Part shown: one piece after another, positions 4,920-35,621 of the stretch
Numbering within the stretch: the stretch's first letter is position 1
Layout: every line of letters begins with the position of its first letter
Program-made: the position numbers and the translations under genes
The notes under the pieces: model-generated
Databases searched by the model: none
Seen by the model: the letters and a program-made list of their open reading frames with translations, nothing else
What the model was told of the DNA's origin: nothing
Source of the DNA: Promethearchaeota archaeon
GTDB taxonomy: Archaea > Asgardarchaeota > Lokiarchaeia > Sigyniarchaeales > SOKP01
Reading direction: 5' to 3'
Assembly (NCBI GenBank): GCA_019057865.1
Contig: JAHLWP010000020.1
Coordinates: 1-64,000 of the forward strand
Length of the DNA: 64,000 bases

Positions 4920-6797
4920 ATGTTAAATAAAAGAAAACAAAAGTTACCTATTTTTTTAATGACATTTTTAACATCTATAATCTTAGCGATTACTATAAGC
5001 ACAAATTTCTATATTTCAAATGAATTTAATAAAACTAATACTTTTAATGATCCAACTTCTCTAAAAACTGCGGATATATTTTCTGATATTATCATTGATG
5101 ACACTGGAGGTGGCGATTATACTTGGGAAGAATTTAAGGCTAGTGGATATTGCTCTGGATCTGGTACATCTGGAAGTCCGTATTTAGTAGAAGATCATAT
5201 TTTTGACAATGATGGTTTGGGTGACGACTGTTTAGCAATTATTAATTCAAGAAAGTATTTTATTCTCCGAAATTGTACTTTTAGAGATTCAGCTTTATTT
5301 GATGCTGGATTATTTTTAGATAACGTTACAAATGGAGTAATTGATGAGTGTTTTGCGTACGATAATTATATAGGATTTGATTTGGATAATGTCAACGATA
5401 CAGAAATTACTGACAATCATATCTATGAAAATATTGCTGGAATGACCTTAGAAGGTTCTAATTTTAACACCATAGATAATAATAATGTATCAGCAAATAT
5501 AGATATAGGAATATACATCTCAAGCAGTAGTTCTAATACCATTTCCGATAATCTTCTAAACAATAATCAAAACTTTCATGGAATTTGGTTAGTTTCAAAT
5601 AGTAATGAAAATGAGATTTTTGGTAATACAGCTAATTTAAATACCATTGGAATTGCGATTGATGGTCCATGTACTGGCAATACCATTTCAAATAATGAAG
5701 TAATTAATAATACCAATTCGGGAATCCAACTCGATGATGCAGATAATAATATTCTTTCATCAAATATAGCTAATGATAATACTATCTACGGAATTTATTT
5801 ATTAGGGGGAAGTGAAGATAATACCATTTCTAATAATGAAGCAAATGATAATTCTGTAATCGGAATTGGACTTGAAAATTCTCATAAAAATACTCTTTTA
5901 TCAAATACTGCTAATGATAATACGGTTAATGGAATTTATTTAGCATCGGGAAGTCAATATAATACTGTCTTAAAAAACATTTTGAATTATAACGATGTTT
6001 CAGGTATCTATAGTGATTTCTGCTCTAATAATGAATATATCCAAAATAAATTGAATCATAACGGAGTTGGGGGTATCTTATTAGAATCTTGTCAAGATTC
6101 AGTAATCCATGATAATACAGCTTATAATAATTTGGTAAACGGAATCAGTATTAATAATGCAAATAATATAACATGTACCGACAATACAGTTTATGAAAAT
6201 AATCAAAATGGAATATTATTGTCGGATTCAGATGAATGTAAAATAGAAAATAACAATGCGCATCATAACGGTTTCGATGGAATACGAATATATGATAATA
6301 GCCGTTGGAACGTTATAAAATCTAATATCGCTCGATACAACAATTTAAGTGGAATTCATTTACTTACCAATTGTCGCAACAATTTAGTAATGGATAATAC
6401 AGCTAGTTACAATGAAGAACATGGAATCTTGTTAGATTCAAGCGACATTAACACGTTAACTGGTAATACAGCAAGTAATAATGAAATGAATGGAATTCAT
6501 TTATTCTCAAGCGATTCAAATAGTATTTTTTCTAACACAGCAAATAACAATAAGAATGGTACTTTTTTGGACAATTCTAATAACAATATCGTGGCTAATA
6601 ATATATTCCTTGGAAACGACGACTGTTATAATGAAACCGGAAGCACCGGTAATATCTTTTTTGACAATATTTGCACTAGCGCAGGAAAAGGTTTGGCAAT
6701 AGATTTGAGCACAATTCTATTAATTATTTGCATTATAGAAGGTGTAATAATCGCAGCTGCAGCCTCAATGTATTTTATAAAGAAACGTAAATCCTAA
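4920..6797 (+). CDS. NosD/CASH parallel beta-helix surface protein
   Basis: N-terminal signal/TM, GSGTSGSPYLVE motif, many GI.L..S..N.I..N repeats and a C-terminal TM followed by KKRKS. Confidence 0.85.
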   Translation: MLNKRKQKLPIFLMTFLTSIILAITISTNFYISNEFNKTNTFNDPTSLKTADIFSDIIIDDTGGGDYTWEEFKASGYCSGSGTSGSPYLVEDHIFDNDGLGDDCLAIINSRKYFILRNCTFRDSALFDAGLFLDNVTNGVIDECFAYDNYIGFDLDNVNDTEITDNHIYENIAGMTLEGSNFNTIDNNNVSANIDIGIYISSSSSNTISDNLLNNNQNFHGIWLVSNSNENEIFGNTANLNTIGIAIDGPCTGNTISNNEVINNTNSGIQLDDADNNILSSNIANDNTIYGIYLLGGSEDNTISNNEANDNSVIGIGLENSHKNTLLSNTANDNTVNGIYLASGSQYNTVLKNILNYNDVSGIYSDFCSNNEYIQNKLNHNGVGGILLESCQDSVIHDNTAYNNLVNGISINNANNITCTDNTVYENNQNGILLSDSDECKIENNNAHHNGFDGIRIYDNSRWNVIKSNIARYNNLSGIHLLTNCRNNLVMDNTASYNEEHGILLDSSDINTLTGNTASNNEMNGIHLFSSDSNSIFSNTANNNKNGTFLDNSNNNIVANNIFLGNDDCYNETGSTGNIFFDNICTSAGKGLAIDLSTILLIICIIEGVIIAAAASMYFIKKRKS

Positions 6798-6938
6798 ATA
6801 TCTTTTTTTTTATTTTTTTATATTTTTAGTTTGAATCCTTGTTTAATGAGTTTTTACAAAAAATTTATATGTCCAAAAAATATATATTAGATAACGATAT
6901 ATCTAACTTTTATATAAACTTTTCAGGAGGAGACATAT

Positions 6939-25431: not shown

Positions 25432-26871
25432 TTGATTGGAATTAAATCGTATGGAGCTTATTTACCCCGGTATTTATTACCAAGAGAACTAATAGGTAAA
25501 GCTTGGGAATTTCCAATAGTTCCTGGCACTAAAGCAGTAGCAATGGCAGATGAAGACAGTCTAACAATGTCAGTTGAAGCTGGTTTAGATTGTTTAGTTG
25601 GAATTGACGCAAAAACTATTGATGGATTATTTTTCGCATCAACAACTCAAGTATATACAGAAAAAGACTCTGCATCATTAATCGCTACTGTATTGGATAT
25701 GAGAGAAGATATTATTACTGCTGATTTTACAGACTCTTTAAAGGCAGGAACCACAGCAGTTACACGAGCAGTAGATACCATTAAGGCAAACAAAGATATT
25801 AAACGCATTCTAGTAGTTGCAGCAGATACTCGAGCACCAGAACCATCAACGATGTGGGAGTATGGATTTGCTGATGGCGCAGCGGCTTTACTTATAGCGG
25901 AAGATGATAATTTACCTTTATCAATTGACGATTATTATTCAGTTTCTGCTAATGTTACTGGACCCTGGAAAAGAGCAGATAAGGACAAATTTATACGAAC
26001 TTTCGAAGTGAAAATGGATGCAAAATTTTATCTTGAAAATATAATCAAAGTAATGTCAGAAATTTTAAAAAGAAATGAATTGAAACCTGAAGATATCGGT
26101 GCTGCTGCATATTATTATAATAATCCTAGAATGTATGGGAGAGTTGCAAGAATGATGAAATTTGCACAAGGAGTCGCGCAAAATAGTGTGTTTTTTCAAC
26201 TTGGTGATTTAGGAACTCCAATGGCATTTGTGCTTTTAATTGGTGCATTAAGAAGACCTAAACCTGATGCAAAAATACTTATGGCAGGATTTGGTGATGG
26301 GGCAGACGCAATCCTAATGCAAGTTCGAGATCGAGATGCCCTACGAAATCTTGGTAAAACAAGAATGGGTTTTATTGGACATCAAAAATCCATGAAAGCC
26401 CTAAAGAATTATAATAAGTTCCTTGCTTTTAAGGAGGTTCTTGAAAAAGATAGATATACTAGAAAGAGCTCTGCTGTAACAATATGGCGCGATACAGCAT
26501 CAGTATATAAATGGTATGGTGTTAAGTGCAAAAGTTGTGGAACTATTCAATATCCTGATATGCTACGTTCTTGTTATGTTTGTAGAGCAGATGATCAGTT
26601 TGAACGCATAAAACTCGCGTTAAAGGGAACTATCTTTACTTATACATTAGATCACTTAGTGGGTGGTGCATACTTAGATATTCCTGTACCTCGATGTGTG
26701 ATTGATTTAGATGGTGGTGGAAGGGTTTTATTAAATATGACCGAAATTGAGAAACCAGAAGAAAATGTTCAAATAGGTATGAGAGTTGAATTAACCTTCA
26801 GAAAAGAACATGAAGGTGCTGAATTTAAAAATTATTATTGGAAATGTCGCCCCGAAAGAGGGAGGCCATAA
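25432..26871 (+). CDS. HMG-CoA-synthase-like protein fused to a DUF35 Zn-ribbon/OB-fold
   Basis: YGAYLPRY, DEDSLTM, ADGAAA, CKSCG...CYVC and GTIFTYT motifs. Confidence 0.85.
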   Translation: MIGIKSYGAYLPRYLLPRELIGKAWEFPIVPGTKAVAMADEDSLTMSVEAGLDCLVGIDAKTIDGLFFASTTQVYTEKDSASLIATVLDMREDIITADFTDSLKAGTTAVTRAVDTIKANKDIKRILVVAADTRAPEPSTMWEYGFADGAAALLIAEDDNLPLSIDDYYSVSANVTGPWKRADKDKFIRTFEVKMDAKFYLENIIKVMSEILKRNELKPEDIGAAAYYYNNPRMYGRVARMMKFAQGVAQNSVFFQLGDLGTPMAFVLLIGALRRPKPDAKILMAGFGDGADAILMQVRDRDALRNLGKTRMGFIGHQKSMKALKNYNKFLAFKEVLEKDRYTRKSSAVTIWRDTASVYKWYGVKCKSCGTIQYPDMLRSCYVCRADDQFERIKLALKGTIFTYTLDHLVGGAYLDIPVPRCVIDLDGGGRVLLNMTEIEKPEENVQIGMRVELTFRKEHEGAEFKNYYWKCRPERGRP

Positions 26872-26887
26872 AGGAGGTTGATAAAAA

Positions 26888-28075
26888 ATGGTAAGAAAAG
26901 GAATAAAGGATAAGGTTGCGATAATTGGCTGTGATATGACTAAATATGGAGAACTTTGGGATAAAAATCAATATGATTTGCTTTTCGAAGCTTTTCATAG
27001 CGCATGTAAGGACACTGGAATTAATAAAGATGAAATTGATGCTAGCTGGATTGGAATATTCTACTATTTCACTGGTCTTTCTGGCGCTATGGTTGAGGAT
27101 ATTTTAAGATTGGATGGGAAGCCCTCTACTAGAGTTGAAAATTTTTGTGCTAGTGGAATGGATGCTTTTAGGAATGCGTCATTTGCCGTTGCTTCAGGAG
27201 CATATGATGTTGTACTTGCATGTGGAGTAGAAAAGTTAATGGATGAGGGAGGTAGTGGACTTCCAGGTTTTAAACTTTTTGGACATCCCTTATATCCGAC
27301 TCCATCTGCACCAGCAATGTTTTCTATGGCCGCAACAAGATGTTTTCATGATTATGGATGGACAAAAGAAGATCTAGCTAGAGTTGCTGTCAAAAATCAT
27401 GATAATGGTTCAGATCATCCAAAAGCACACTTCAGAAGTAAAATCACAATTGATCAGGTAATGAAAGCTCCCATGATCGCTGATCCTCTTGGTCGATTCG
27501 ATTGCTGCGCTATGTCTGATGGAGCAGCTGCCTTAATCTTGACTACACCAGAACTTGCTGAGAGTTACGCTCATGCAGATGATTACATTTTAGTTAAAGC
27601 GAATGCTATTTCATGTAGAACTAACTTTCCGTGGTATATACCTTCCAATGGTCCTGGAGCAGATTTCACCAGTTTTCCTGCAACTGTAAAAGCAGCTGAA
27701 TATGCCTATAAGGAGGCAGGTATTACTGATCCTCGAAAGGAGATCGATTGTGCAGAAGTTCATGACTGTTTTACGATTACAGAATTGATCAATTGCCAGG
27801 ATTTAAAATTCTGTGATCGTGGTCAAGCTGCTGAAGAATTAAAGAATGGAACCTTCAATTGGGACGGTGAAATAGCAGTAAATCCATCAGGTGGTTTAAA
27901 GTCATTTGGTCATCCAATTGGTTCGACAGGCTGCAGAATGTTAACAGAGATTACAAAACAACTTCAAGGACGTGCGGAAGGAAGACAAGTCCCGGATGCT
28001 AAAATTGGATTATGCCACAATCTCGGTGGAGCATTTGCTGTCTGCTCCACTACAATCTTAAGTCAAAGAGATTAA
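26888..28075 (+). CDS. Thiolase (SCP2-type acetyl-CoA acyltransferase)
   Basis: VENFCASG, EVHDCF, NPSGGL.SFGHPIG and HNLGG motifs. Confidence 0.9.
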   Translation: MVRKGIKDKVAIIGCDMTKYGELWDKNQYDLLFEAFHSACKDTGINKDEIDASWIGIFYYFTGLSGAMVEDILRLDGKPSTRVENFCASGMDAFRNASFAVASGAYDVVLACGVEKLMDEGGSGLPGFKLFGHPLYPTPSAPAMFSMAATRCFHDYGWTKEDLARVAVKNHDNGSDHPKAHFRSKITIDQVMKAPMIADPLGRFDCCAMSDGAAALILTTPELAESYAHADDYILVKANAISCRTNFPWYIPSNGPGADFTSFPATVKAAEYAYKEAGITDPRKEIDCAEVHDCFTITELINCQDLKFCDRGQAAEELKNGTFNWDGEIAVNPSGGLKSFGHPIGSTGCRMLTEITKQLQGRAEGRQVPDAKIGLCHNLGGAFAVCSTTILSQRD

Positions 28076-28142
28076 AAAATTCAAATTATTTAAAAAAATT
28101 TTTTTCTTTTAGTTTTTAATTTATTCTTTCATTAATGAAGTA

Positions 28143-28238
28143 AAAAATTATTTAATTTTAAATTAATTTTAGTTAATTATGAGTAATAGTTCATTTAACC
28201 AATTTAGGGGAGACGTAAATACTGACAAAATTAAATTT
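28143..28238 (+). repeat. Diverged copy of the moxR upstream region and first 20 codons (partner at 31699-31794)
   Basis: ATG 28179 gives MSNSSFNQFRGDVNTDKIKF versus MSKSTFNQFRGDVNTERIKY. Both share the upstream AAAAATTATTTAATTTTAAA. Confidence 0.85.
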
Positions 28239-28268
28239 TGTATAATCTAATAATATCATCAATCAATT
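28234..28268 (-). pseudogene. Truncated third copy of the small membrane-peptide gene
   Basis: Reads MIDDIIRLYKI* after a GGAG SD. Bases 28241-28268 are identical to 28584-28611. Confidence 0.7.
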
Positions 28269-28288
28269 TTCACATCTCCTTCACATTT

Positions 28289-28609
28289 TTAATTCTTTTT
28301 ATATTTAATAATTCTATTTATGACTAATTTATTACAAAATCTTCTATTTCGCAATTGGTGAAACTCTTTTATCTTAACTGTTGAATATTTTGTCCCAGAG
28401 GGATAAGTACTGTTATTAAGATCAACGTTTAGAAACACTATAGAAATTGTGAAGAAGGTTACTATTAAAATTATTAAAAAGATTATCCAAAATAAGATAG
28501 AATTAACGAAAGGCTTGCGATTTTTATAAAATAAAATATTATTAATTTCTTTTTTAGTTAGTCCCAATTCTTTTCCTATTTTATATAATCTAATAATATC
28601 ATCAATCAA
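28289..28609 (-). CDS. Small single-TM protein, paralog of 31225-31497 (candidate rSAM substrate)
   Basis: YKIGKE.GL.KK.IN.IL leader, one TM helix, then YPSGTKYSTVK. Confidence 0.75.
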   Translation of the reverse strand: MIDDIIRLYKIGKELGLTKKEINNILFYKNRKPFVNSILFWIIFLIILIVTFFTISIVFLNVDLNNSTYPSGTKYSTVKIKEFHQLRNRRFCNKLVINRIIKYKKN

Positions 28610-28635
28610 TTCTTAAACTTCCCTCATAAATTTTA

Positions 28636-29769
28636 TTATAAAATTTTGTTATTAATAATTCTATGATACAAATTTTTGTATCTTGAAATTATCACATCTA
28701 ATTTGCCTCTTAATGGGAATTTCTGTGAGTTAAAAAATACATTTTCTATTGCCCTTAAACAATAAGGATCATCATAACAATTTAAAGCTAAACTTGTCCC
28801 CAAACATCCTCCTTTACAGTCTTTACTAATATCACAATTTAAACAATAACCTTTTAGGTTTGCTTTTTTAAATCTTTTATTATAGCTAAAAGCATGAGGA
28901 TTTGATAAAATTCTTTTTAAACTTTGATCTCGGATATTTCCTTCAATAAATTCATCTGGCAGAGTTAAACATCCTTTAATATTTCCGTTGCTTTGAATCC
29001 CTAAAACAGAATATCCTGCTTGGCATCCAACCCATGGTTCTAATCCTAAATTTGGTATGAATCTCGAAAAATATCCAAAACAATGTGCGCCGATCAAGGG
29101 CAACCTTGTATATGAATATTTTTTCACATTAGTTGCTATAAACATTGCTAAGGTAAAGTATTCTTCTCTTGAAATAACTAATTCTCTAGGAAAACGTCCA
29201 ATTGGTATAGCTATTTGTATCTGCCATGCGATATTTCGATCTAATAATAACTTTTTAATCTTATCTATTTCTTTTAAGTTTATCTTACTGACTGTAGTAA
29301 TAACACTTACAGGTAATTTTTCTTTTTTTAATTGATTAATAGTATTTAGAGTCTTAGAAAATGCACCTTTAATCCCTCTAAGATAATCATGTGTTTCTGG
29401 CGTTCCTCCATCTAAACTCAAGGATACACAATCCACGCTTAACTTTTTTAATTTTTGAATATGATCTACTGCATTTAATCCATTAGTCACAATGGATAAT
29501 TCCATTTTATTTTTTTTAACTTCTTTTGCGATTTGATACCAGTCTTTTCTTATCAATGGTTCTCCGCCCATTAATGCTACTCCTTTATAGCCACAGGAAT
29601 GTAATTCTTTAACTAGTTTTAATGCTTCATCAGTATTTAATTCATCAAATCGTGCATTTCCAGCTTTAGAACCACAATGAATACAATTACTATTACATTT
29701 TAAGGTAATTTCCCAAACAGCACAAGAGCCTTTGATTCTACTTGTTATCAATGATGTTAAGCTTGGCAT
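28636..29769 (-). CDS. Radical SAM protein with SPASM domain (PqqE/AhbD-like)
   Basis: CNSNCIHC, GGEP, SLDG and a SPASM Cys pattern CQAG...GC...CxxCxxxxxCxGGC...C. Confidence 0.9.
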   Translation of the reverse strand: MPSLTSLITSRIKGSCAVWEITLKCNSNCIHCGSKAGNARFDELNTDEALKLVKELHSCGYKGVALMGGEPLIRKDWYQIAKEVKKNKMELSIVTNGLNAVDHIQKLKKLSVDCVSLSLDGGTPETHDYLRGIKGAFSKTLNTINQLKKEKLPVSVITTVSKINLKEIDKIKKLLLDRNIAWQIQIAIPIGRFPRELVISREEYFTLAMFIATNVKKYSYTRLPLIGAHCFGYFSRFIPNLGLEPWVGCQAGYSVLGIQSNGNIKGCLTLPDEFIEGNIRDQSLKRILSNPHAFSYNKRFKKANLKGYCLNCDISKDCKGGCLGTSLALNCYDDPYCLRAIENVFFNSQKFPLRGKLDVIISRYKNLYHRIINNKIL

Positions 29770-29884
29770 TATAAAATTTGGATTCTTCCTTTTTGAAGAA
29801 GAAAGATTCTAAGCTACCTTATAAATCTTTATTAGTAATTAATATAATTTCGAAAAATCTCAACAAAAAAAATGATTATTTAAT

Positions 29885-31228
29885 CTATCCTCTTGATAAA
29901 TAATTGTCAAGGGAACTAATAGGCTTAAAATTTGGAGAAGGTTCTTTTCCTTTTTTTATCCATATTATCTCTTGATTAATATCATTTCTAATTTTCTTTT
30001 TATTCTCTACTTTGCTAATTTTTAATAATCTTAATGTCCTCCTATAAAATTTTAATGCATGTGCTTTTAAATCTAATTTAATTAAGACTTTTGCTAAATT
30101 CCAAAAATATAGAAAATCATCTCTATATAATTGAATTGCTGTTAATAATTTCTTCCTTGAAATTTCATATTTATCTAAGTAAAATTGCTTTATTCCTTGA
30201 TAAAAAAAATCTTCAGATTTTCTTTTAATAATTATTGGAGAGAAAATATTTATTTCAATTATGCTAAGTTTATTTGATAATTCCTTGAGATGATTTAATT
30301 GTTTCTCTCTCTCATCCTTTGAGAACAATAGTTTTTCAATTAATCGCATTCCAAAAGATTCAATTGATGAGAACACCAATTTTTGTGTCCCAGGAATGAT
30401 CGGCGCGTTCTTTAAAGAATTATATAAAATATTAGGGAAATTAAATTGAATCAAATACTCAATTATCTCACTAATATGCTTTATCTCAAAACTAGAAAAA
30501 TAATTTTTGGTCTTTATTGAATTTAAAAAAGAGCTCGTAATTTCAGGCGATTTAATTAATGCCGCTTTTATTAAATCAAATAATATTTCTTTATTTTTTT
30601 TATGTTCAAATTCCATTAATTTTATTAATATAAACGTTAGTAAATCTTCTTGCTCTTTAGTTAAAAATGAATCTTTAAAATTAACATAATTTTCTATTAA
30701 CATTTTTTTCCGAATATGAGTTAAAATCTGAAAATATTCAGAAAATTCTTCTTTTAAAGGTTTCTTACACTCAATTCTTAGAGTTGGAATTGATTCTGCA
30801 TTATAAAATCTTTTTTTAATTATTTTATTATACCCGATTTTTTCAAGCATTTCTATTAATAATTCTGGTGGATAACATAATTTATGTTGAAGCCCTTCAT
30901 GAGGAATTCCAAATATCCATCCTAAAATCTCTTTTTTCTGTTCAAAATTTGAGTTTAAATAGTGATTAAATGCTTTTTCTATATCGGGGGTTTCAATTAT
31001 TAATTCTCCATTTGATTGTAAAACTCTAAAAAATTCACTTAATGCATAAAGAGCCTTAAAATAACCTAAATGCTCAATTAAGTGAATTACTTTTAATTCT
31101 TCACATGTATTATCAGTAAAATCAAGGTTTATCGCAGACATCTTTTTGTCTGCTAGAATATCTTCATAGAGGTCTATATTACAATAATCGGGGTCATACT
31201 TTTTTCCAGAACCAATATTTAATTTCAT
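29885..31228 (-). CDS. Class I SAM methyltransferase with C-terminal TPR
   Basis: LNIGSG, NID and HLIEHL motifs; TPR-like helices near the C-terminus. Confidence 0.75.
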   Translation of the reverse strand: MKLNIGSGKKYDPDYCNIDLYEDILADKKMSAINLDFTDNTCEELKVIHLIEHLGYFKALYALSEFFRVLQSNGELIIETPDIEKAFNHYLNSNFEQKKEILGWIFGIPHEGLQHKLCYPPELLIEMLEKIGYNKIIKKRFYNAESIPTLRIECKKPLKEEFSEYFQILTHIRKKMLIENYVNFKDSFLTKEQEDLLTFILIKLMEFEHKKNKEILFDLIKAALIKSPEITSSFLNSIKTKNYFSSFEIKHISEIIEYLIQFNFPNILYNSLKNAPIIPGTQKLVFSSIESFGMRLIEKLLFSKDEREKQLNHLKELSNKLSIIEINIFSPIIIKRKSEDFFYQGIKQFYLDKYEISRKKLLTAIQLYRDDFLYFWNLAKVLIKLDLKAHALKFYRRTLRLLKISKVENKKKIRNDINQEIIWIKKGKEPSPNFKPISSLDNYLSRG

Positions 31229-31497
31229 TTTTTATTCTTAAAATCGCGAGTCTTAACTGTTGAATATAATGATCCGCTAGGATAATTTGAATCGGAAGTA
31301 CTTCCTGAAGATACCCCAAAACCAAATATTACACTAAAAAAGAAAAAAAATCCCACTAACGCTATAACTAAAACTAAAATCAATAAGGAAGAATACAGTA
31401 TAGAACTTTTACGCTCAGAAATAAGGATCTGATTAATATCTTTTTTATTTAATCCCATTTCTTTACCAATTTTATAAATTTTGTAAAATTGAATCAT
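31225..31497 (-). CDS. Small single-TM protein (candidate rSAM substrate)
   Basis: YKIGKEMGLNKKDINQIL, one TM helix, then YPSGSLYSTVK. Overlaps the methyltransferase start (ATGA). Confidence 0.75.
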   Translation of the reverse strand: MIQFYKIYKIGKEMGLNKKDINQILISERKSSILYSSLLILVLVIALVGFFFFFSVIFGFGVSSGSTSDSNYPSGSLYSTVKTRDFKNKK

Positions 31498-31734
31498 ATC
31501 TGGTAAAATTTGAAAATTTCACCTCCAATATAAGAAAGAATTATTATTTATTATTATCCCATTTCTTTATATAAATACTTTTAAGCATTAACTTAAATGT
31601 CATAATATTTCAAAGATATAACTTTAATTTCATATTATCATATAGAAAGAAAAATAATTATTTTTTCAATGATGAAAACAAACTTTTTAACAATAGTCAA
31701 AAATTATTTAATTTTAAAACAATTCTAGTTAATC

Positions 31735-32589
31735 ATGAGTAAAAGTACATTTAATCAATTTAGGGGAGACGTTAATACTGAAAGAATAAAATATATCGCT
31801 GACCCTCAGCTAAGAAACATCGTCAATGTATCTATAGCATTAGGTAGACCACTCCTAGTGAAAGGAGAACCGGGAACTGGGAAGACCCTTCTATCTCATG
31901 CTATTGCTGAAGCATTAGGAAAGCGATTGATTATCTGGAATATAAAAAGCACTTCTGAAGGTATTGATGGATGTTATATGTATGATACTGTCCAACGTTT
32001 AAATGATAGCAGATTTGGTAGTGAAGATCGAAATGTAGATAGCATAAAAGATTATATAACCTTAGGACCTTTAGGAGAAGCGTTTGCTTCTGATGAACAA
32101 GTTGTTTTATTAATAGATGAAATTGATAAAGCAGATATCGAGTTTCCTAATGACCTTCTACAAGAATTGGATGTAATGGAATTTTATATAAAAGAAACTA
32201 AAGAATTTGTAAAAACAAAAACACGACCTATAGTGGTTATTACCTCTAATAATGAAAAGGAACTGCCTGATGCCTTTTTAAGAAGATGTGTATTTCACTG
32301 GATTGAATTTCCTTCCAAAGACTTTATGGCAGAAATTTGTAGGCTACATTACCCTAACTTAAAGCAAAACCTATTAGATCAATGTTTACAGCATTTTTAT
32401 GCATTAAGAGCTATAACAAAATTAAGGAAAATGCCGTCTACATCTGAACTTCTTGACTGGATAGGTGTTCTATTAAAAAGTGGTATTACAATAGATGAAG
32501 TTAAGGAGAAAATTCCGTTTTTGGGTGTGTTGATAAAGAAGGAGAAAGATTATGAAGTTGTTTTAGATAAGATAAGATTCCCAACATAA
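31735..32589 (+). CDS. MoxR-family AAA+ ATPase
   Basis: Walker A GEPGTGKT, Walker B LLIDEIDKAD and ELPDAFLRRC. Confidence 0.92.
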   Translation: MSKSTFNQFRGDVNTERIKYIADPQLRNIVNVSIALGRPLLVKGEPGTGKTLLSHAIAEALGKRLIIWNIKSTSEGIDGCYMYDTVQRLNDSRFGSEDRNVDSIKDYITLGPLGEAFASDEQVVLLIDEIDKADIEFPNDLLQELDVMEFYIKETKEFVKTKTRPIVVITSNNEKELPDAFLRRCVFHWIEFPSKDFMAEICRLHYPNLKQNLLDQCLQHFYALRAITKLRKMPSTSELLDWIGVLLKSGITIDEVKEKIPFLGVLIKKEKDYEVVLDKIRFPT

Positions 32590-32598: not shown

Positions 32599-34365
32599 TT
32601 ATTTAAAAATATTAAATTTAACGCTAAATTTTTCTTCTATTTTTTTAACTATCGCTCGCATTTGGGTTGTATTGCTAATGAAAGGATATTTTCTCCATAA
32701 TTCTGGTATTCTATATTTCTTGTTCTGATTTGATAGTTTAATAATGTCTTGAATGAATTCAATATGTTTTAATAATAATTGTTCCATAGATTCTTTATAT
32801 TCATCATTATTTAGTAAGTAAGAAAGACGTTCTAATTGTAAAACTTTATTCTGATTATCTTTTTCAGTTTTAAAGCTTAATTCTTCATTATTAATATTAT
32901 ATTTTAATTTTTCAAGTACTTTTTCATTATTAATATCAAATTCTGCCCTTTTTATAATATTGTAAATAGATATGGAAATAATTTTTCGTTTTTCCGTACC
33001 TAGAGTTTTGATTTTCCCATTTTCAGCTATTATATTCTTATTATTCTCATACCAAGTTTTAAAGCCATTCTCACCATTAATTTCATATTTTTCATATTCT
33101 TCCTCATTAAATACCAAAAAGAGATATTTTAATATTGTTTTTTGATCAATGGGAGTTTCTTGGAATTGTTCTTTAACTTTATTCAGATTTCCTAACTTAA
33201 TAAACAACATTTTCAGTTTTTCAGCGAACTTTTTTGAATAATGATGCTTGTGGTAAGCTAGAGCTTTCTCTATGGCTTTCTCAATATTACTATTGTTAAT
33301 TTGTAAATCGAATTTTTTACATATTCCCTCTAAATACTCAAGATACTCAATCGAGAACTTTCTATCATTTGGATCTAGAAAATCTTTCTCAATTTGGCTT
33401 TTAATAGCTTCTCTAATTTTTTTAGAGGCATTTAAATATATTAAAGTAATCCCCCAATATTTTCGCCTATTTTTATCTTTCCATTTCTCAGGATTAACAT
33501 GTTCTAAAAATTTATTAACATCAGTCTTAGAACTAATGATAACTAAATAATTATACTTCTTATCCTCTTTTCGGAGATATTGATTAACTTTACTTGTATT
33601 TATACCTAATTTTTCACTTAATTGTTTGAAATTTTCGACTAAAGGTTTTGACGCATTAACAAAAGAAATTCTGAAGCTCCTATCCTTTTTACTAATCCAA
33701 ATACTCCCATCTGTATCAGTTAACCCTTTTAAGCAAGCCTTAATAAATCTTCTATATCTTTGAGGTATAGATACACGATGTTTCACTTTATCCCCTGGTA
33801 CAAGTCTTGCATTCTTTAATGCGTCGACTCCTGCTAAAGAATAAATCCTTAATTTTATACCCTTAGTCCTTATAGGATCATCATCGTCTTTTGACCAAAT
33901 TTCCTCAGGCTCTTTTTTTAGCATACGTTTCATATATTCTTTTACATACTCTACATAAGAATATTCATCTACTCCATTAAGAGACATAATAATCCCATAA
34001 TTCTCTTCATTTATATTACCATCTCCAAGCATAATTGACAAAAATTCAGCGGTCTCTTCATTTTCTTCAAGTTCGATTTTTTCACCTATTGGTGAATTTC
34101 TTTTATGAACTATTGGCTTTCCATATAATTTTTCTAATCTCTTGAAAACCTTATAAGGAATACTAGAACCTGCCAATGCATTAGAGATTGTATTTTTGTG
34201 TCCACCAATAATAATTCCGATTTTATAATCTGGTAGGTTTTTATTTGGATATTTTGCTCTTATTTGGTTGCAAACGCTTCTTAACCAATCTGGTTCAATA
34301 ATTACACATTCTTCAAGTCGATCATATACACCTGATCCTTTTTTAATAAAATTAGCACTCAACAT
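32599..34365 (-). mobile_element. Free-standing double-motif LAGLIDADG homing endonuclease gene
   Basis: AEFLSIMLGDG and ACLKGLTDTDG motifs; no intein splice motifs; flanked by the duplicated moxR 3' end. Confidence 0.8.
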
Positions 34366-34685: not shown

Positions 34686-35621
34686 ATGCCCTTGAGTAAA
34701 GGAAATAATAATTCACTAGGCTTTGTTTATAAATATAAAACTATTTCTGTTGATCATCTAAAAGAGTTGCAAGAAGATATCGATAAGTTATATCATGAAG
34801 GCAAGCTCAGCGAAAATAAGACCTATAGACAATATTTAAGCACTAAGAAGTTTGTGATTCCTGAGAGTTTCCCTAACGCTAAATCAATAATAGTTTTAGC
34901 TATTGCTACTAAACTTGTGTTAGTAAATTTTCAATTAGATGGTAAAAAACATGAAATCATGATACCACCTCAGTATTATGATGATGGATTAACATTTGAA
35001 GATTTAGAAAATTTAATATTGAAAAAATTAATCAAGAAACCGGGTTTTAAGATTGAACTAGCAAAAGGGCTCCATTTAAAACTATTAGCAGTTAGAAGTG
35101 GGCTTGGGGACTATGGTAGGAATAACCTCTGTTATGTAGATGAGATGGGTAGTTTGATCACTTTATATGCATATTTTACTGATTTTCAATTTCAAGAAGA
35201 TAATTGGAGAGAGATAAAAATGATGAATATTTGCGAACATTGTAATATTTGTACAAGTAATTGTCCTTCTAACGCGATATCCACTTTACCAGAAGTAAAT
35301 TTTGTAATTGATGCTGGTAGGTGTATAACATTGTATAATGAAATAGAAGGAGAATTTCCAAAATGGATTAGCCCAGATGCGCATAATGCTTTAAAAGGGT
35401 GTATGAAATGTCAATTGCCTTGTCCCGCTAATCGTGAAGCAATTAAATTAATAGAAAGGTTTGAAGATATCACAGAGGAAGAAACAAGAATGATATTGGA
35501 AGGAAAACCAGAGGAAGAATTACTAAACTCTTTAGCTGAAAAACTTAAAATGTTTTACCCATCCAATGCAAATGAAGCTTTTCCTATTCTCAAAAGGAAT
35601 CTTGAATTTTTAATAAGATAA
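34686..35621 (+). CDS. QueG/reductive-dehalogenase-like 4Fe-4S dicluster protein
   Basis: KLLAVRSGLGDYGRNN, CEHCNICTSNCP and GCMKCQLPCP motifs. Confidence 0.8.
   Translation: MPLSKGNNNSLGFVYKYKTISVDHLKELQEDIDKLYHEGKLSENKTYRQYLSTKKFVIPESFPNAKSIIVLAIATKLVLVNFQLDGKKHEIMIPPQYYDDGLTFEDLENLILKKLIKKPGFKIELAKGLHLKLLAVRSGLGDYGRNNLCYVDEMGSLITLYAYFTDFQFQEDNWREIKMMNICEHCNICTSNCPSNAISTLPEVNFVIDAGRCITLYNEIEGEFPKWISPDAHNALKGCMKCQLPCPANREAIKLIERFEDITEEETRMILEGKPEEELLNSLAEKLKMFYPSNANEAFPILKRNLEFLIR

Follow-up and report, generated by a model that had tools for sequence, protein, structure and literature searches.

A short run of genes in an Asgard archaeal genome raises the question of why small membrane-anchored peptides should be encoded together with a radical S-adenosylmethionine (SAM) enzyme and a methyltransferase (MT). 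The genes lie within the window, by which we mean the whole stretch of 64,000 nucleotides that was analysed (positions 1 to 64,000 of contig JAHLWP010000020.1, Promethearchaeota archaeon, assembly GCA_019057865.1). The initial annotation had listed peptide A, an MT protein with tetratricopeptide repeats (TPR), a radical SAM (rSAM) enzyme with a SPASM domain, peptide B and a truncated peptide C, all in the same orientation. We found every one of these parts at its place on the minus strand, the MT/TPR protein being 447 aa long and the last part being a stump of 11 codons. From the comparison of sequences and from structural models it seems probable that the genes form a three-component cassette for protein maturation, in which small membrane proteins (SMPs), here peptides A and B, are the substrates.

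Linkage and distribution of the three components

Among 400 Asgard genomes the MT protein and the rSAM enzyme were each found in 112 and SMPs in 86. The three sets, about a quarter of the genomes, are nearly identical, and the mismatches between them fall in fragmentary metagenome-assembled genomes (MAGs) or at contig ends. No SMP was found in any of the roughly 290 Asgard genomes without the cassette rSAM or MT. The initial annotation had asked whether homologs of the peptides occur without the rSAM gene; 84 of the 86 SMP-bearing genomes hold the cassette rSAM and/or MT, and the other two are fragmentary MAGs with matches at contig edges. When 41 relatives were compared, the rSAM and the peptides shared an identical set of 12 genomes within the genus, where they lie side by side.

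The linkage is also evident at the level of individual loci. At least one SMP gene on the same strand (1–7 copies) accompanied the MT gene in 72 of 76 non-redundant MT loci, and the loci showed more than 12 gene orders, always composed of the same three parts. The stop codon of an SMP gene overlaps the start of the MT gene by 4 nt in 31 loci, and in the window the same 4-nt overlap joins the peptide A stop to the MT start. In the 67 loci examined, no other gene family recurred across distant loci, nor did any family of proteases or transporters; the proximity to moxR is synteny inside one family only.

The cassette was also found in MAGs labelled Thermoplasmatota and Aenigmatarchaeota, and in a small number that bear a bacterial label. 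Promethearchaeum syntrophicum MK-D1, a cultured strain, carries it as DSAG12_01995–01999 (01996 inferred from position), where the annotation goes no further than hypothetical, methyltransferase-domain and radical SAM proteins. Literature searches on Asgard rSAM systems for peptides that are made by ribosomes and modified after translation (RiPPs) and on the MK-D1 locus tags turned up nothing about this cassette. The largest array of SMP genes that we saw is in a MAG labelled Heimdallarchaeota (L112, G078:C22, 2059–8284), where seven tandem genes for three-helix SMPs of ~170 aa stand before the rSAM and MT genes. Some cassette-bearing genomes have, in addition, orphan SMPs away from the cassette (G011:C71, L065:3028–3306; G112:C5; G269:C115; G036:C299). 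A role in defence was considered, and the PADLOC result gives it no support: nothing was returned for the MT or the SMPs, and for the rSAM there were only generic matches of its core to pVip (79 bits).

Small membrane proteins with two invariant tyrosines

Peptide A (31225–31497, minus strand), an SMP of 90 aa recognised from its ORF, its paralog and family profile searches, consists of an N-terminal helix motif, one transmembrane helix and a tail with the motif Y72-P-S-G-S-L-Y78-S-T-V-K (31252–31284). Peptide B (28289–28609, minus strand) has 106 aa and a TTG start, and its tail motif at 28373–28405 contains the corresponding residues Y69 and Y75. The two are 41% identical over 81 residues (E 3e-15) and are thus paralogs. 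They have in common the N-terminal, leader-like YKIGKExGLxKKxIN, one hydrophobic helix and the tail YPSGxxYSTVK, just as had been noticed initially; the DNA of the tail is itself repeated between the two genes (28372–28406 in B, 31251–31285 in A).

Beyond the family of the window, the rSAM and MT genes have as neighbours up to seven tandem genes, each for a protein of 120–190 aa that spans the membrane with two or three helices. Profile searches connected the peptides with one membrane helix and the SMPs with two or three in both directions, and the SMPs form one family with one-, two- and three-helix membrane forms. It comprises about 400 clusters in a library of 1.84 billion proteins; the sequences diverge quickly and the copy number is variable. 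In an alignment of 45 diverse SMPs, the sole invariant residues were two tyrosines, corresponding to Y72 and Y78 of peptide A, and the additional helices of the two- and three-helix forms are inserted between them. The initial proposal that YPS and YST could be sites of modification has therefore gained weight, as their tyrosines are the only residues that the family keeps without exception in this alignment.

We also counted the residues around these tyrosines in 321 SMPs. The first (Tyr1) was kept in 319 and was followed by proline in 89%. The second (Tyr2) was kept in 316; the residue before it was variable, the residue after it was G in 45%, S in 37% and N in 14%, and the next was V, T or S. 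The consensus is accordingly Y-P for the first and X-Y-(G/S/N)-(V/T/S) for the second, and at Tyr2 the window peptides read L-Y-S (A) and K-Y-S (B). Charge counts by the positive-inside rule place the N-terminus of the SMPs inside and both tyrosine motifs outside the membrane, and the pair stays on one side of the membrane in all forms.

No conserved cleavage motif was seen after the N-terminal helix in the 45-member alignment. We also considered whether the N-terminus might be a shortened Nif11 leader and rejected this, as none of the 45 SMPs gave a Pfam Nif11 match at E ≤ 1. A search of the ESM Atlas with an SMP of MK-D1 returned unrelated membrane proteins only (best feature score 0.82, structural TM score ~0.5), and the family is likewise without relatives in Pfam.

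The radical SAM/SPASM enzyme

The rSAM gene (28636–29769, minus strand) encodes a protein of 377 aa with the Pfam domains Radical_SAM (PF04055, E 4.5e-28) and SPASM (PF13186, E 2.4e-7). The CX3CX2C motif (C25, C29, C32) and a complete seven-cysteine SPASM motif (C249, C267, C309, C312, C318, C322, C337) were invariant in 25 of 25 diverse cassette homologs, and with both cysteine motifs present the sequence places the enzyme in the radical SAM/SPASM superfamily. The rSAM core begins at about residue 15, and no PqqD match was found with Pfam. In-frame stops had been flagged in some matches, which raised the possibility of selenocysteine; they proved to be terminal stop codons, as checked on one locus (L119), and the idea was dropped.

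To which rSAM family the enzyme is closest was examined with the NCBIfam models. The best was TIGR04103 (Nif11-class peptide maturase 3), which scored 214 bits against a cut-off of 725, or about 30%. It was followed by TIGR03913 with 178 bits, also below its cut-off, by AhbD with 156 bits (cut-off 500) and by NirJ with 116 bits (cut-off 515). We presume that TIGR04103 is the model that contains the PlpX spliceases; the papers searched did not confirm this. The ranking of families was identical in all 25 cassette rSAMs, with best E-values of 2e-69 for TIGR04103, 6e-63 for TIGR03913 and 6e-51 for AhbD, all below cut-off, which speaks against the grouping with AhbC/D that was considered at the outset. 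The models for WgkB, PqqE and MftC matched the cassette rSAMs at E 1e-22 to 1e-46. As all scores lie far under the cut-offs and the maturases rank first, the enzyme belongs to none of these families and is nearer to the peptide maturases than to the heme enzymes. Its 120 best homologs were all unnamed members of the cassette, no true TIGR04103 member was found among the control genomes, and a sequence search of the PDB gave generic matches only (SkfB, 2e-18; PqqE, 9e-9).

The methyltransferase-TPR protein

The 447-aa protein (ORF 29885–31228, minus strand) had no Pfam or NCBIfam match, no Pfam MT model passed E 0.01, and a sequence search of the PDB found no match. Its domains were recognised in an AlphaFold model (pLDDT 93.4). 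Residues 1–159 (30752–31228) have a class-I methyltransferase fold, with 150 residues aligned to 3sm3 (VIA-align Z 16.2, root-mean-square deviation (rmsd) 2.7 Å), and dozens of other SAM methyltransferases match this domain structurally as well. G6, G8, N17, D19, E52 and H53 were invariant in 38 MT homologs. By its fold, together with G6-x-G8 and N17/D19, the domain is predicted to act as a class-I SAM-dependent methyltransferase.

At the other end, the last ~100 residues matched a three-repeat TPR (residues ~331–447; 29885–30238 with the stop codon). All 86 residues of the idealised three-repeat protein 1na3 were aligned, with an rmsd of 2.1 Å and a Z of 12.8, and over 68 residues the unit fitted 2avp with an rmsd of 1.0 Å. 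A Z of 12.8 lies in the range where helical repeats may match by arrangement alone, and it is the low rmsd and the nearly invariant W-N-L-A...Y signature that support the TPR assignment. Further matches of this unit included many peptide-binding TPRs (HOP, Sgt2, Tah1, Rap, AimR), and the C-terminus is predicted to be a TPR of the peptide-binding type. Between the two lies an all-helical domain without a recognised fold (residues 160–330; 30239–30751), whose helices are confidently modelled; a fold search with the C-terminal half of the protein matched residues ~331–446 only and left this middle domain unmatched.

The cassette as an exchangeable unit

The cassette is flanked by a thiolase gene (26888–28075, plus strand) on one side and by a gene for a MoxR-type AAA ATPase (31735–32589, plus strand) on the other. 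The truncated peptide C of the initial annotation is present, as TTG, ten codons and a stop (28231–28266, minus strand), although it is a scar of a rearrangement and not a gene. The stump repeats the start of the gene for peptide B and the sequence upstream of it (28235–28294 against 28578–28637, 82%). At its end it meets the beginning of a copy, 98 nt long, of the moxR start (28139–28236, plus strand, against 31695–31792, 88%). This relic, which takes in the promoter and the first 19 codons of moxR, marks the left boundary, so that 98-nt direct repeats flank the 3.5-kb cassette.

A sibling locus (L128), whose MT is 92% identical, has peptide C intact (97 aa, 5202–5495) and one more peptide gene, which lies upstream of the MT gene. 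A 203-aa ORF without a Pfam match and a gene for an MscL-like channel (5516–6801) separate its peptide C from thiolase. In the window the 1.7 kb of L128 with these two genes is deleted and the 98-nt moxR copy stands in its place. A related ORF of ~217 aa adjoins the cassette in 11 Loki-type loci.

Genomes of the same genus without the cassette (L206, which is G012:C47, L207 and L208) have the order 3-hydroxy-3-methylglutaryl-CoA (HMG-CoA) synthase, thiolase, moxR, with ~0.7 kb from thiolase to moxR. These empty sites make the cassette a presence/absence polymorphism at a fixed locus. In G012 the flanking proteins are 93–98% identical to those of the window, and its moxR start is 96% identical to the relic copy and 90% to the working moxR start of the window, which suggests that the cassette came by recombination along with a foreign moxR allele. 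With the empty sites and the foreign allele, the cassette would therefore be an accessory, exchangeable unit.

As for the other genes nearby, the HMG-CoA synthase of the window is fused to a DUF35-like C-terminal part and precedes thiolase (25432–28075 for both); the GC content of these two genes is 0.36–0.38, clearly above that of the cassette (0.25–0.27). Just past moxR, an antisense gene at 32599–34365 encodes a free-standing LAGLIDADG_3 protein of 588 aa (Pfam E 1.4e-13). It is followed at 34686–35621 by a gene for a 311-aa 4Fe-4S protein resembling QueG and reductive dehalogenases, under both family cut-offs; in the cassette-free relatives this gene comes directly after moxR.

Probable maturation of tyrosines and alternative explanations

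From the computed anatomy, conservation, co-occurrence, folds and invariant residues we infer that the SMPs are the substrates of the two enzymes. The arguments are the three-way linkage that persists through rearrangements, the variable copy number, the translational coupling, the maturase-like relatives of the rSAM and the two tyrosines as sole invariant residues. A maturation pathway might then proceed as follows. The cytoplasmic N-terminal segment of the SMP, which resembles a helix-turn-helix (..IGKELGL..KEI..) and precedes the predicted membrane helix and the short tail with the two tyrosines, would be the docking element. The soluble rSAM/SPASM enzyme would carry out radical chemistry on one or both tyrosines; the MT protein would grip the substrate by its helical/TPR domain and add a methyl group; and the modified SMP would remain in the membrane. 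The N-terminal helix and the TPR are probably the docking pair. For the chemistry, the most likely candidates are a splicease-like excision of tyramine or a C–C or C–O crosslink starting from tyrosine, and an aromatic-X-X3 cyclophane or a Tyr–Tyr link would fit equally as well as splicing. The aromatic-X-X crosslink of the initial annotation is thus retained as a candidate, though as one of several.

It is possible, although we hold it with considerable doubt, that in this way integral membrane proteins have their backbone rewritten or their tyrosines crosslinked in Asgard archaea and in some Thermoplasmatota and Aenigmatarchaeota, which would give a reactive or rigid group on the outer face, such as an α-ketoamide warhead or a tyrosine-derived cofactor.

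Several points speak against maturation of the SMP tyrosines. The entire case consists of comparative genomics and predicted structures. The enzymes have neither a signal peptide nor a membrane helix, yet the tyrosine motifs are outside, so modification would have to precede insertion into the membrane. Neither a protease nor an exporter is linked to the cassette, and a PqqD-like recognition element was likewise not found. If splicing is considered, the L-Y-S and K-Y-S of the window peptides are not XYG, the proline that follows Tyr1 in 89% of SMPs fits no known splice site, and the rSAM reaches only ~30% of the TIGR04103 cut-off (214 against 725 bits).

Of the other explanations, the one that survives best, while unlikely, takes the SMPs as membrane anchors or adaptors: through their N-terminal helix they would bring the MT-TPR protein and the rSAM to the membrane, where the pair would act on a lipid or some other small molecule. 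Radical SAM enzymes do act on membrane lipids in archaea, docking is a role that would suit both the TPR and the conserved helix in the cytoplasm, and the enzymes are soluble while the SMPs are integral membrane proteins. An anchor, however, has no need of one to seven diverging tandem copies, and it would leave unexplained why nothing but two tyrosines, beyond the membrane helix, is invariant. In addition, the nearest rSAM families are peptide maturases, and an accessory function accounts better than lipid synthesis for the patchy, indel-like spread inside one genus.

Slightly less likely again is a protein-derived cofactor, in which the tyrosines would become a quinone-like or crosslinked redox centre and the SMP a membrane-anchored electron carrier or catalytic subunit. 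The SPASM enzymes PqqE (Glu-Tyr) and MftC (Val-Tyr) make tyrosine-derived cofactors and, as noted above, both match the rSAM; both invariant tyrosines share one side of the membrane in all forms; and the hosts of the cassette are anaerobes. No redox partner, hydroxylase or oxidase is linked to the cassette, however, which is also absent from half of the species of the genus, and multiple diverging copies would be unusual for a cofactor scaffold.

We give still less credence to a classical secreted RiPP or archaeocin, from which an N-terminal leader would be cleaved to release a membrane-active hydrophobic core with a modified tail against competitors. The conserved, leader-like N-terminus, the variable core and the several precursor copies, as well as the patchy distribution of a mobile locus, are what such a system would show. 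In 76 loci, however, no protease, transporter or immunity gene was linked (an unlinked protease could still cleave), the N-terminal helix has no conserved cleavage motif behind it, and the homologs, at 120–190 aa and with two to three membrane helices, have the look of proteins that reside in the membrane. The term 'RiPP-like' of the initial annotation is loose, in view of these larger multi-helix relatives and the missing linkage to a protease or exporter.

Finally, that the rSAM is an AhbD/NirJ-type tetrapyrrole enzyme or another cofactor enzyme, with the small ORFs as unrelated neighbours, is highly improbable, as those models match (116–157 bits) under the maturase models and far under their cut-offs, no heme genes are linked, and the occurrence of the rSAM strictly follows that of the SMPs and the MT.

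Comparison with known systems

Known radical SAM/SPASM maturases work on soluble peptides and on a small number of soluble proteins. The putative substrates encoded in the cassette are instead integral to the membrane, the enzyme is always accompanied by an MT-TPR partner, and the system is widely distributed among the closest archaeal relatives of eukaryotes. As MK-D1 carries the cassette, maturation of the SMP tyrosines can be tested by proteomics in a cultured strain, besides co-expression. If tyramine splicing is the reaction, its range would grow to include archaea and membrane proteins; any other chemistry would be a new tyrosine-directed modification. Either would explain 'hypothetical proteins' that recur in hundreds of metagenomic clusters. 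Were tyrosines indeed rewritten on the outer face, this would be the first spliceotide-like chemistry in archaea and the first rSAM maturation of membrane-embedded substrates.

For the MT we looked at the RiPP methyltransferases CypM, LahSb and CgnL, which share the class-I fold and match structurally at Z 13.6–14.4. Dozens of unrelated SAM methyltransferases rank as high or higher, and none of the three has a helical or TPR extension.

Among protein-maturing SPASM enzymes, anSME acting on sulfatases and QhpD acting on QhpC, likened here by the nature of their substrates, have functional proteins as substrates that keep their N-terminus, with no leader removed, which matches the SMP forms of 120–190 aa with two or three membrane helices. 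Unlike the SMPs, their substrates are soluble or periplasmic enzymes, and the targets are Cys or Ser, not Tyr.

The rSAM/SPASM crosslinkers (three-residue cyclophane or triceptide enzymes, WgkB, SuiB, PqqE, MftC) act, as is proposed here, on aromatic residues of co-encoded peptides. The Tyr2-X-(V/T/S) of the SMPs fits the aromatic-X-X3 pattern of the cyclophane enzymes, with a Cβ hydrogen at X3, whereas X3 after Tyr1 is not conserved. The cassette differs from these maturases in that its rSAM stays below every equivalog cut-off, no PqqD-like element was found with Pfam and the putative substrates are embedded in the membrane.

The spliceotide systems (PlpX/PcpX with PlpY, and the binary RhaX/RhaA, RcsX and RasX) differ in several respects. 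The cassette rSAM scores 214 bits where TIGR04103, which is presumably the splicease clade, has its cut-off at 725. The window peptides have Y-S and not Y-G, and there is a second invariant tyrosine followed by proline. The putative substrates are integral membrane proteins, the MT-TPR partner is obligatory and the lineage is archaeal. The likenesses are nevertheless several. Both have an rSAM/SPASM-type enzyme, an invariant tyrosine between a variable and a small residue, and several precursor copies, and the best NCBIfam match of the cassette rSAM is a Nif11-class maturase model, TIGR04103. PlpX acts on Nif11-like precursors (PMC5995677, PMC11414181, PMC11626197). Tyramine is removed by spliceases at XYG motifs, and the leader of the precursor holds a helix that activates these enzymes (PMC11414181, PMC11626197, PMC9811515, PMC5995677). 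At Tyr2 such an X-Y-G stands in nearly half of the SMPs (45% of 321). In spliceotide systems the precursor helix can suffice for activation, with no recognition protein apart from it, and the conserved N-terminal helix of the SMPs might play this part.

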